DNA of 61,412 nt, counting the filler, from Perkinsus olseni (lineage: Eukaryota), in assembly GCA_013115125.1 (NCBI GenBank). It is 9 parts of 9 records of this genome, joined end to end, with 100 filler letters (N's around TTAATTAATTAA, not from the genome) between each part and the next. Parts side by side here need not be neighbours in the genome. Positions count along the whole stretch, not along the records: positions 54,726 to 61,412 come from JABANN010001074.1; 8 more parts are not named here. The stretch is one strand, 5' to 3'. Shown here in pieces: positions 57,714 to 60,700 of the stretch. Position numbers and translations under genes: made by a program. The first letter of the stretch is position 1. Every line of letters starts with the position of its first letter. The notes under the pieces were generated by a model. That model did not search any database. It was not told the DNA's origin and saw only the letters and a program-made list of their open reading frames with translations.

Positions 57714-60700
57714 ATGCGTGCCCACAACACGTCCGCGGTCAGGAAAAGCATTGGGAGATCAGACGAAGCCAGGGCCCGCAGGAGAAGAATACAACGCGAG
57801 AAACAGCTAGAGGCCCGAGAATCGTCTATGTCTCTCCGTCGTCAGTTGGAGTTTCTAGAGAACCGCGCTCTGGAACAACGCGAGGATTGGGCTCGGGCGG
57901 AGGACTCCAAACTGACTACTGGCCTAGCAAAACCCGAACTCTGTGCCTGGGGAGTTGTGCACGGTCCACACTCGGAGATGCAAGCTGAGCTCAACAATAT
58001 CCTTACGGAGGCAGTGGACGAGGTGAGAGCCTCACCGGCTGGCAAATTCCTCGCCGGGTGGGTGAAGCTCTCCCGAGAGGACCAAGCAAACTTCTCGGAT
58101 TCCTGGACGGGGGTCGAAGAGGAAATTGACCGCGTGGCTTCGCGAATGCGAGACCGCTGGTGCCAGGCGCTCGGGTGCTCGAATCGGCAGTCTCTGAGCG
58201 GTTCTCCGCTGAGGGTCCCCCTTCTTAAAAGCCTGCTAAGCACATGGAGGGGTGGTGCCGCGGAGGATGAGTCTATCCTCGACGACGTGGACTCGGGCGT
58301 CAACATCGGGGTACGTTACCCCATCTCTCGCTCGCATATCTGGCCTGAGTACTCTGGTTCGTCGATATCCGACTACTACACTGTCTCGAGCTTCGAGAAG
58401 GACGCTTTCGTGAACTACGTGAGCGCGGAAGAGAACCCAGAGCAGGTGGAGAGGGAGCTCGAAAAGGCCGTGATGAAAGGCCACATGGTGGAAGTAGGCG
58501 AGGAGCTGCCGCCGGGACACGAGGATGCCGTTGTGAGCAGAGTTGCCAGCATACCCAAGGCGTCGGGCTCCTGGCGTATCATAGATGATATGAAACGTTC
58601 AGGGTTGAATACTCTGATAAAGATGAGGCACCACATGGTGGAGACCATATGCCTACCAACGAATCGTTGGCAACGATGAGGGCAGTCGCCTTGTTGCTGT
58701 CGCTGGCGTTATCATGGTTTTCCGCCGACGCAGTCATCATAGAGCTCGATGCTAAAGAGGCTTTCAAGCATCTACGGATCTCAAGTCTCGACGAGGTGTT
58801 CGTCTACAGCTGTGCGCCTGGGTCCAAGACCTTGTACAGGCATCTCCGCCTCGCGTTCGGTTGCATAAGTTCCCCGCTCTTGTGGGTGAATAGAGTACTC
58901 TGTGCCGCTCTGCAGCTGCAATGCATCGCCTACATCGACGACACCTCTTTCATCTCCAATTCCCAGCGTGCCTTTGACGACCTCGTTGCCATCGTGCTTC
59001 TCCACACCGCAGTCGGAGTCATCTCAGAACTCCGCAAGGCCCGGGCCTCACGAACGCCCCGCCTGCTCGGCTTTCAGTGCGACTTATCGAAAGAGCAGAT
59101 CGACATACCACAGGACAAGCTGTCCGGGATCGCAGAGCTCGGGGAAACTGTTCTCGCGGCCCACTCCCGCGGAGAGCCGGTCCGCGTGCGATGCGTCGAG
59201 ACTCTTCTGGGCAAGCTGATGTGGGCCTCACAATCCTGTATAAACTTCAGATGCCACCTGGGCCCCGTCTTTGCCTGGTGCAAGGCGGTTAAGAAGAGGC
59301 AGTCGAGGAGAGATGGGAAGGCCAGGAACGGCATTCGCAAGAACAATAGGGATCACACCGCGTATCTCGGGCGAGCAGCTCAGTCGAAAATCAGGCTCCT
59401 GCTCTCCGTCCTACAGTGCGAGTGGCTACGAGCTAGGTCGATCACTTCCGTCCTAGGCCGCGGACTGCTGCGGGGCCAATCTGCTGTCATCTCCGACGCC
59501 AGCCTCGAAGGCTTCGGTGGTACCTGCTGCGTTGTAGACTCGGCCGGTGAGAGACACCGCTGGTGGTTCGCAGTTTCTTTCGACGATGCTCGGGCCCTAT
59601 CCCTGGTGAAGGCTGTGGTGCCTTCCTTCCTTGGCGGCCAACAGTTTACTTCGGACGACGTCAGCTGCCTAGAACTAGTTGCGCTGGTCGTCGGTCTCCT
59701 GGTTATTCCCCGGGAGTATACCCGGCTGCCCTGTACCCTCCTCAGCGACAACACAAGTGCCGTCGCCGCCATCAACCGCAGCTATAGCTTGGTGCCCCGA
59801 ATGGCCCTGGGCCATTGGCCCATATATTGGCACGTCTGTCGGCTGTCAGGCGAGGCGATCGTCGTATACAGGCGTGTCACCTTCCGGGTATCGACAACGA
59901 GGTGTGTGACGGCCTCTCGCGAGGCTCCAGACCTCGCCCAGCTGCGGCACGTGTACTCGGTTCGTTCGTGGATGTCTCCTCGATCCTGTCCACTCTGGGC
60001 AACGTCAGCCTTATACGTCAGCCGAGTCAGCCTTATACTCACTCTTACGGTATTCGCAGGCCGGTGAAGGTCAGGGGCTCAGGCAACCGAGGGATCCCAA
60101 CGGTTGATGCGGAGACGGTCCAAACCGTGCTTGGAGCGGCGAGGGCTCAGCCCACGAACCGCAAATACGATAGCATTGTACGCAGGTACACCGACCTTCT
60201 GAACCGCATGAATGTGGTGACTCCCTGGCAGCTCAGCGGCCACAGTCTCGCGATCTACATCTCGGCTCTAACCCGGGAGGGAAAGGTGAAAGCCGAGACC
60301 ATCGAAGATTATGTCGGAAAGCTGCGCTGTGTGGGCAAGCAGTTTTCGGAGGGCCTCACCGGCCCTGAGAGTGAGTTGGTACGCCTCGCTCTCCAAGGCT
60401 CCAAACGTATTCTGGGATGGTCTGAGCCGGTGAGGGCCCGGACTCTCTCGGCTACTGAGCTAGCTACTCTTTCGAAGCTCGAGCCCAGTAGCGGCCGCGC
60501 GTGCGCCGTTGCTGCGTACCTGGTGGGCGTGTGTGGTCTCCTCCGTCTAAGAGAGGTGGCTGAGCTTCGAGTGTCAGACGTCGAATGGAGGGAGTCTCAA
60601 GACTCACGGTTCGCCGTGCTGAATGTCCGGCACTCGAAGACCGACCAGAGAGGTAAGGGTAGGCTAGTGGCGATCGGCTGCTGCACTGTGTCGGAGCCGT

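Follow-up and report, generated by a model that had tools for sequence, protein, structure and literature searches.

The closest described excision products are those of the hAT transposon Ac/Ds, which retain the duplicated 8-bp target, contain tracts of P (palindromic) nucleotides with the complement of the element-adjacent base at their centre and are joined at microhomologies, these being involved in 85-100% of footprints in Arabidopsis and in 88-89% in S. cerevisiae. In S. cerevisiae the palindrome arms reach up to 20 nt, and hairpins formed on the flanks have been offered as the explanation (PMC5873905). For C. albicans, 28 different Ac/Ds footprints were reported among 128 revertants. 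Another hAT transposon, Hermes, favours 8-bp targets of the form nTnnnnAn and duplicates 8 bp on insertion (PMC10368747), and Muta1, a Mutator-like element (MULE), produces 8-9-bp duplications together with hairpins on the flanking DNA (PMC5499845). Here we describe scars of this general kind in a stretch of Perkinsus olseni DNA (assembly GCA_013115125.1), hereafter the window, which is 61,412 nt long and consists of nine contigs (C1 to C9) of 6.69-6.82 kb, or 60.7 kb without the filler (spacers N44-TTAATTAATTAA-N44). In the last contig (C9, 54726-61412) two scars split the pol gene of a putatively DIRS-like retroelement. These two frameshifts, like at least 30 further sites in the window, are probably footprints left by the excision of a cut-and-paste DNA transposon that makes a target-site duplication (TSD) of 8 bp, the hAT superfamily being the most likely source. 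A transposase had already been proposed as the agent in an earlier, sequence-only reading of the window, and this is likely, as the format of the scars bears the signature of hAT-type excision.

Both scars in the C9 pol have the same format of 22 nt, in which an 8-bp target O is turned into O[1-7]+revcomp(O)+O[2-8] with a net gain of 14 nt; each 22-mer is thereby a pair of overlapping 15-nt odd palindromes. Scar 1 (58656-58677, O = CCAACGAT, +14 nt) moves the pol frame from 0 to 2 and scar 2 (59801-59822, O = ATGGCCCA, +14 nt) from 2 to 1. The open frames of C9, numbered as coordinate modulo 3, are frame 0 up to 58679, frame 2 at 58589-60067 and frame 1 at 59788-60888. The sequence-only reading held that the 14-nt strings ATCGTTGGCAACGA (58663-58676) and TGGGCCATTGGCCC (59808-59821) had been inserted into a formerly open pol frame, that an addition of 14 nt always shifts the frame, here in the order 0, 2, 1, and that removal of the strings restores two particular peptides. 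The letters and positions of the strings are as it gave them, the open-frame map agrees, and so does the frame arithmetic. The predicted peptides are found in P0001, P0003 and P0004, proteins from other records that are named Perkinsus olseni by their source and are 96, 92 and 80% identical, respectively; all three are uninterrupted across both scar sites (..ETICLPTMRAVALLL.. and ..SVPRMAHILARLSAV..). Public sequencing runs, compared on C9 alone through contigs of X1, X3, X7 and X8, point the same way. The contigs of X7 and X8, two further samples of the same organism, are approximately 97.6% identical to C9 (73 mismatches over 56978-60008), and at both 58657 and 59802 they are shorter by exactly 14 nt. 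In X1 and X3 the scar bases are kept at full depth at 58657, at 59802 and at a third site, 55601, and the depth without them is zero. Since X7 and X8 are without the 14 nt while X1 and X3 keep them, the scars are derived, present in the reads and not made by an assembler. They are insertions, gained in the lineage of the window after its split from the X7/X8 copies and from the copies represented by P0001, P0003 and P0004, and the formerly open frame is thus supported both by the gaps in X7 and X8 and by the proteins that read through.

The scars divide pol into three segments on the plus strand. The first (57681-58655, frame 0) lies upstream of scar 1 and matches the N-terminal part of the P0001-type proteins at 100%. 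The second (58679-59800, frame 2) encodes a reverse transcriptase (RT) with a YIDD motif and the domain following it, and is 96% identical to P0001, while the third (59824-60888, frame 1) contains the end of pol and the start of a tyrosine recombinase (YR)-like region homologous to one in C1. P0002, the public annotation of C9, misses about 50 RT residues around scar 1 in comparison with P0001, and beyond scar 2 some 60 of its residues are out of frame until it rejoins; these errors of the gene model are annotation artefacts caused by the scars. The RT domain was recognised as RVT_1 in the second segment (E = 5.7e-07), in P0002 (5.6e-09) and in P0001 (5.9e-11). The 3' open reading frame (ORF) carries what we take to be motifs of the R..HxxR..Y type, and neither a Pfam family nor a PDB sequence match was found that would make it a tyrosine recombinase. 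It is read as one from its homology to the C1 region and from these motifs, and the C9 element is on this ground read as DIRS-like. DIRS1-like elements are listed for Perkinsus marinus (PMC3266345). At 60743, where the open frame of the window shifts again, there is a 1-nt indel in comparison with the X7/X8 contigs; it is a non-scar frameshift relative to these contigs only, and no direction is assigned to it. Two other differences in the same region are an in-frame 18-nt indel at 58884 in comparison with the X7/X8 copies, corresponding to six residues (RAFSLV) that are present in P0001, and 14 nt at 60009-60022 of the window where X8 has a block of 371 nt.

Exact 22-mer scars are found 32 times in the window: three in C1 (1-6823), 12 in C4 (20682-27398), one in C6 (34315-41027), 12 in C8 (47927-54625) and four in C9, with none in C2 (6924-13738), C3 (13839-20581), C5 (27499-34214) or C7 (41128-47826). 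The scan returned 39 sites when up to one mismatch was accepted and 49 with up to two. Five composition-preserving shuffles contained no exact scar each, and the number expected arithmetically from the 14 constrained positions is approximately 2e-4. Zigzags of the same design built on units of 6, 7 or 9-20 nt are absent from the window, and so is the even version without the one-base overlap (n of at least 5). Palindromes are likewise mostly odd: centres with arms of at least 7 nt number 103 odd, 64 of them inside the 32 scars, vs 10 even ones. Outside the scars the corresponding numbers are 27 and 2 in C1, C4, C8 and C9, compared with 12 and 8 in the other five contigs. The complemented centres (O8 and O1) hold in all 32 scars by construction of the scan. 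The 32 targets display a weak, palindromic preference for GTnnnnAC, with T2 or A7 (numbers denoting target positions) in 29 of 64 cases (background 23.5%, p = 1e-4) and G1 or C8 in 28 of 64 (p = 0.002). The flank logo of the 32 sites revealed no conserved signal beyond this preference within the target.

A more general scan for the arrangement O1-7, P-tracts, O2-8 gave 41 footprint-format matches in the window, in which the span of the P-tracts is 8 (32 matches), 2 (five matches) or 3, 5, 14 and 51 (one match each). The span-2 matches are classical +8 footprints. As three shuffles gave 1, 1 and 0 of these, approximately one of the five is expected by chance. The candidates, each consisting of the target, two complemented centre bases and the target again, are located at 3591-3606, 11606-11621, 23203-23218, 30037-30052 and 50574-50589, two of them in the gene-type contigs C2 and C5. 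The span-51 match is a long-P-tract variant in C8 (50169-50233, O = CTTAGGTA) having left arms of 33 nt (centre 50176) and right arms of 16-17 nt (centre 50226). Its P-tracts are 33 and 16 nt long, and each palindrome is centred on the complement of a terminal target base. The two hairpins would have been opened at some distance from their tips and the ends joined with no annealing step. An exact scar at 50240-50261 (O = TATCCGAC) has its target 14 nt from the CTTAGGTA target in the inferred original sequence. The span-14 match (51537-51564, O = GGTTCGGT) is an out-of-register variant joined at a 3-nt CCG microhomology. Together with the exact scars at 51514 (O = GAGTGTGC) and 51558 (O = GTTCGGTG) it forms a cluster of three footprints (51514-51579, C8) that occupies some 18 bp of the inferred original sequence. 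In C9 a nested double scar (55600-55635, +28 nt, a 36-nt structure) combines a first hit in GTTCAGAG with a second in GTTCAGAC, the latter being an 8-mer created by the first scar, and exactly 28 nt are absent at 55601 from one contig each of X7 and X8. Scars less than 100 nt apart number 4 in comparison with 3.9 expected by permutation within contigs, or 6 vs 4.5 if two variants are added. Because this test is not significant, the adjacency at 55600, at 51514-51579 and at 50169/50240 is suggestive at most. Odd palindromes with arms of 9-33 nt and without a recognisable second half were also seen (50143-50209, 50650-50686, 52391-52417, 24279-24299 and 48248-48266); in these, trimming of the opposite flank has probably left a one-sided hairpin footprint.

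The fixed 8-bp unit, twice in direct orientation, is a TSD. In the proposed course of events the element would insert at O and gap repair would duplicate O. At excision the transposase would nick one base inside each flank and seal the flank into a hairpin, and a hairpin formed with such a one-base offset gives odd palindromes with a complemented centre. The hairpin on the left flank would read O1..O7-c(O8)-c(O7).. on the top strand, where c denotes the complement, and that on the right flank c(O8)..c(O2)-O1-O2.. on the bottom strand. If the hairpins were then opened on the 3' side, several bases off the tip, the resulting 3' tails would hold an inverted copy of the target. The tails c(O8)..c(O1) and O1..O8 would be complementary over 8 bases and could be joined by in-register annealing, fill-in and ligation, i.e., by microhomology-mediated joining. 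Any nick positions with P-tracts summing to at least 8 nt would in register give the identical product, and we infer that annealing of the tails in this way is the reason for the nearly uniform 22-mer. The nested scar at 55600 shows that the events were sequential, and the 8-bp overlap is common to the span-8, the long-P-tract and the classical +8 variants. Taken as a process, this is a known mechanism, hAT-type excision with hairpin formation and microhomology repair, in an unusually uniform and abundant form. Two other routes were considered and rejected. A nuclease acting once on a target that had not been duplicated is ruled out, as both hairpins would need the same nucleotides, and a staggered cut with hairpin sealing of the telomere-resolvase or YR type is ruled out, as it yields rc(O)+O and not the 22-mer.

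Set against the described systems, the scars share with Ac/Ds the retained 8-bp duplication, the P-nucleotide palindromes with their complemented centres, the microhomology at the joint and the capacity for long palindrome arms. Ac/Ds footprints are, however, heterogeneous and mostly short, whereas 32 of the 41 Perkinsus matches are one product with the full inverted target placed between the direct copies; the scars also differ in their frequency of approximately 0.5 per kb sampled, in occurring in a perkinsozoan and in having no element in view. With Hermes they have in common the 8-bp duplication and the nTnnnnAn preference, T2/A7 being found in 29 of 64 cases. They differ from it in the additional preference for G1/C8, and no transposase, terminal inverted repeat (TIR) or subterminal repeats were identified in the window. 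V(D)J recombination and the related Transib/RAG system also involve flank hairpins opened off-centre and P nucleotides, on which the RAG analogy of the sequence-only reading was based. The RAG/Transib hairpins lack the one-base offset, and the associated duplication measures 5 bp, whereas the scars are odd palindromes with a unit of 8 and without recombination signals alongside.

Several points weigh against the hAT reading as it stands. No transposase was recognised by Pfam in the large ORFs of all contigs or in the 119 ORFs (at least 70 aa) of C1, C4 and C8, and two scans of the 60.7 kb for a TSD with TIRs, i.e., for an element with an 8-bp duplication, gave nothing above shuffles. As scarred and unscarred states but no occupied site were seen, the superfamily is deduced from the footprint alone. 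The dominance of a single product (32 of 41) is unlike the published Ac/Ds footprints, P-tract sums of 4-7 are almost absent, and a more deterministic joining step could be at work. A literature search on the hairpin-opening and end-joining enzymes of Perkinsus yielded nothing useful. Finally, nine contigs are a small sample and statements on the distribution of the scars are limited accordingly. Scars of this type were not described in the literature found on Perkinsus transposons, genome-wide hAT footprints and palindromic insertions, supplements being outside the search.

The distribution of the scars is strongly biased, 31 being located in the 26.9 kb of C1, C4, C8 and C9 vs one in the remaining five contigs (33.7 kb). 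In the 12.9 kb of gene-type contigs outside ORFs of at least 100 codons, 14.9 scars would be expected at the density of the repeat contigs and one was observed (Poisson 5e-6), and nTnnnnAn sites are no rarer in the gene-type contigs. As non-ORF DNA of the gene contigs is also nearly free of scars, the bias is not due to coding constraint alone. The sequence-only reading had noted a contrast between retroelements and host genes, with no scar in C2, C3, C5 or C7. The exact scan agrees for these four contigs, adds the one scar in C6, and extends the contrast to DNA outside ORFs. The bias could reflect targeting, linked transposition, tolerance in repeats or selection against even transient insertions near genes. 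It is most simply explained by insertion tolerance and/or linked re-insertion of a nearby donor, with no dedicated defence. Only the focal pair of the 32 scars, and perhaps a third one at 22107, splits a long ORF; most scars are in degenerate or non-coding repeat DNA. The contigs also fall into two dinucleotide classes which coincide with the presence and absence of scars: the CpG observed/expected ratio is 0.93-1.06 in C1, C4, C6, C8 and C9 and 0.56-0.82 in C2, C3, C5 and C7, the latter with an excess of TpG/CpA. The classes could reflect gene methylation, young repeats or different compartments.

The more ambitious proposal of the sequence-only reading was that of a domesticated RAG/hAT-like defence, in which a host-kept transposase without TIRs is aimed at repeat chromatin and inactivates retroelements through the +14 scars. 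It can point to the 31 of 32 scars in four repeat or retroelement contigs, to the single scar in non-ORF DNA of the gene contigs where 14.9 were expected, to the separate dinucleotide class of the scarred contigs, to at least 40 footprints in 60.7 kb in which no element resides and to the fact that both focal scars break pol. A host-kept hAT enzyme that makes hairpins is a relevant precedent for a tamed transposase. This precedent acts at one locus on fixed sites, whereas the scars are at many sites, each with a target duplication implying true insertion. Merlin-related transposase ORFs that are conserved and lack recognisable ends have been reported from P. marinus (PMC8101967). The structure of the scars is nevertheless difficult to reconcile with such a defence. 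The target is present three times in each scar, twice direct and once inverted, which implies integration and gap repair before excision, so that it is beyond the reach of a nuclease that has no mobile DNA to act on, and cleavage without prior insertion, as by a domesticated RAG- or Kat1-like transposase, is contradicted by the required duplication. Beside the 32 scars there is no recognition signal other than the weak GTnnnnAC, a long ORF is interrupted by just two or three of them, and the same pol also has the 1-nt non-scar indel at 60743. The scarred copy may moreover have multiplied (depth in X1 of approximately 2000 vs 100, a weak hint), and linked transposition together with tolerance of insertions in repeats accounts for the bias. 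Since the scar needs a cycle of insertion and excision, no transposase was found and the element is maybe multi-copy, the defence proposal is unsupported and we regard it as very doubtful. A version that keeps the cycle, namely a low-copy, very active hAT-like transposase, perhaps tamed by the host, that together with a small mobile substrate cycles continually through repeat chromatin and, given a repair system with almost only +14 products, would be a standing frameshift mutator of retroelements, seems quite unlikely too. In a bolder variant, which starts from the hint that scarred elements go on multiplying, removal or bypass of the scars in RNA may be what makes them tolerable, in analogy to the introners of the related parasite Amoebophrya, whose hairpin-forming, non-canonical introns have inverted repeats of 8-20 nt and direct repeats of 3-5 nt at their borders (PMC7789003). 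The long hairpin footprint at 50169-50233 has an anatomy like that of the Amoebophrya intron borders; a link between the two is speculation.

The remaining alternatives differ from hAT-type excision in the agent. That another cut-and-paste superfamily with an 8-bp TSD (Mutator-like, P, Merlin, Zisupton and the like) made the scars is unlikely, even though Muta1 combines 8-9-bp duplications with flank hairpins (PMC5499845), Merlin-related transposase ORFs occur in P. marinus (PMC8101967) and no hAT gene was seen in the window. Muta1 forms a hairpin of 43+43 nt without the one-base offset, and more than 90% of its excisions are precise (PMC5499845). A hairpin of the Muta1 type would predict even palindromes, in contrast to the 10 even and 103 odd centres of the window and its lack of even zigzags, and the scars are imprecise yet uniform. 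Both the complemented centre base (PMC5873905) and the nTnnnnAn preference (PMC10368747) are documented for hAT transposons. P elements leave element-end sequence behind, and no sequence of this kind is present in the scars. Template switches are able to create inverted duplications, and transposon-independent template switching or fold-back repair at quasi-palindromes would also explain why no element is seen in the window. It is nonetheless highly improbable: the unit is always 8 (32 scars vs none for 6, 7 and 9-20) and not of locally variable length, the palindromic target preference fits a dimeric transposase, and the long-P-tract and +8 variants keep the same 8-bp overlap. An origin in sequencing or assembly is hardly conceivable. 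The assembly is fragmented (contigs of approximately 6.7 kb) and the runs that bear the scars may include its source data. However, independently built contigs of runs from two studies carry the scars at full depth, two other samples are without them, likewise at full depth, the stretch is found in the contig sets of six runs from two studies with a word share of 0.95-0.99, one scar is apparently shared with X7, and the scars are confined to certain contigs.

Four of the C9 events are absent from the X7/X8 copies, those at 58656 and 59801 and the double hit at 55600, all within approximately 5.6 kb of one element and beside a point divergence of approximately 2.4%. Among the differences listed there are no 14-nt insertions private to X7 or X8. 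The fourth exact scar of C9 (54964-54985, O = CGTATTAC) is covered by an X7 contig (54757-55085) with at least 31 mismatches listed in 329 nt and no gaps; as this contig is ungapped there, the scar is probably older and shared with X7. Given four private events and one apparently shared, scarring is long-running and has been active recently. In X1 the word depth of the scarred 5,111-nt contig is 2002.6, vs 103.1 and 10.1 for two side contigs, and in X7 the unscarred contig has 120.2 vs approximately 19 for the contigs of the 5' flank, word depth not being copy number and the contrast being a weak hint only. With an approximately 20-fold depth in X1, the scarred copy may have multiplied after it was hit, and the scars may not have stopped its spread.

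As 14 of its bases are constrained by the scar itself, the format can be recognised with essentially no false positives, so that past cut-and-paste visits can be counted, dated and mapped in this genome. Such counting is normally impossible since footprints are short and heterogeneous. Scarring appears as a mutational process of notable weight, and by implication a perkinsozoan repairs hairpin ends almost deterministically, with microhomology as the driver. It also accounts for odd gene models such as P0002, and the scars are lineage-specific markers for separating isolates of this shellfish parasite. They also open a genome-wide test of whether transposon visits preferentially disable retroelements. 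The scars record past visits of a transposon and are not clear evidence of a defence system.

Two further retroelement remnants in the window carry scars. A YR-like remnant on the minus strand of C1 (4243-5106) is homologous to the 3' part of the C9 element (tblastn 2.8e-18). The sequence-only reading had reported from it an odd palindrome with 12-bp arms at 4429-4453. The palindrome is there (25 nt, 12-nt arms), and in addition the region contains an exact scar at 4330-4351 (O = GTCGTCAC). The palindrome is probably a one-sided hairpin footprint. Stops lie between the 4330 scar and 4429-4453 and the frame is the same on either side, which would fit +13 and +14. The same reading placed a near-exact scar in an RT of C8. 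The scar exists (53672-53692, fitting the format for O = CCCCCCGC except that a C-run is one C short), but the RT turned out to be a weak remnant only (53182-53400, minus strand, ..KPYMDDIVIG.. with YMDD; RVT_1 E = 0.0022, below the curated cut-off). An exact scar at 53714-53735 lies upstream of this remnant in the minus-strand sense.

The other exact scars of C8 are located at 49309-49330, 50981-51002, 51197-51218, 51722-51743, 52200-52221, 52316-52337, 52926-52947 and 53848-53869, and those of C1 at 2518-2539 and 3828-3849. In C4 one scar (22107-22128) lies between minus-strand open stretches of 90 and 138 codons that have the expected frame relation. The remaining C4 scars are at 20972-20993, 22807-22828, 23041-23062, 24554-24575, 26305-26326, 26559-26580, 26648-26669, 26697-26718, 26971-26992, 27001-27022 and 27263-27284. 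No Pfam family was found for C4, and its ORF at 21698-22144 has no homologue among longer proteins; the contig remains unclassified repeat-like DNA. The only exact scar outside C1, C4, C8 and C9 is that of C6 (36411-36432), which is also the sole contig not of the repeat type with a scar. An ORF entering C6 from the contig start (34315-34941) has a GIY-YIG nuclease domain (E = 2.3e-06); it may represent either a homing-type nuclease or the terminal part of a Penelope-like retroelement.

Among the contigs without exact scars, C5 encodes a protein with a P. olseni homologue at 90% identity. For the run of plus-strand ORFs in C7 (44001-47826) no Pfam family was found, and an Atlas search with one of the ORFs gave no usable match. 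The same part of C7 has a strong strand asymmetry, with a GC skew of approximately 0.24 and an AT skew of 0.05-0.08. The nearest Atlas cluster of a C3 protein is mainly from Perkinsozoa. C3 contains two tandem, intron-less FAD_binding_4 oxidase genes (14517-16631 and 17252-19447), neither of them with a scar, which share 83% DNA identity over 1.6 kb.

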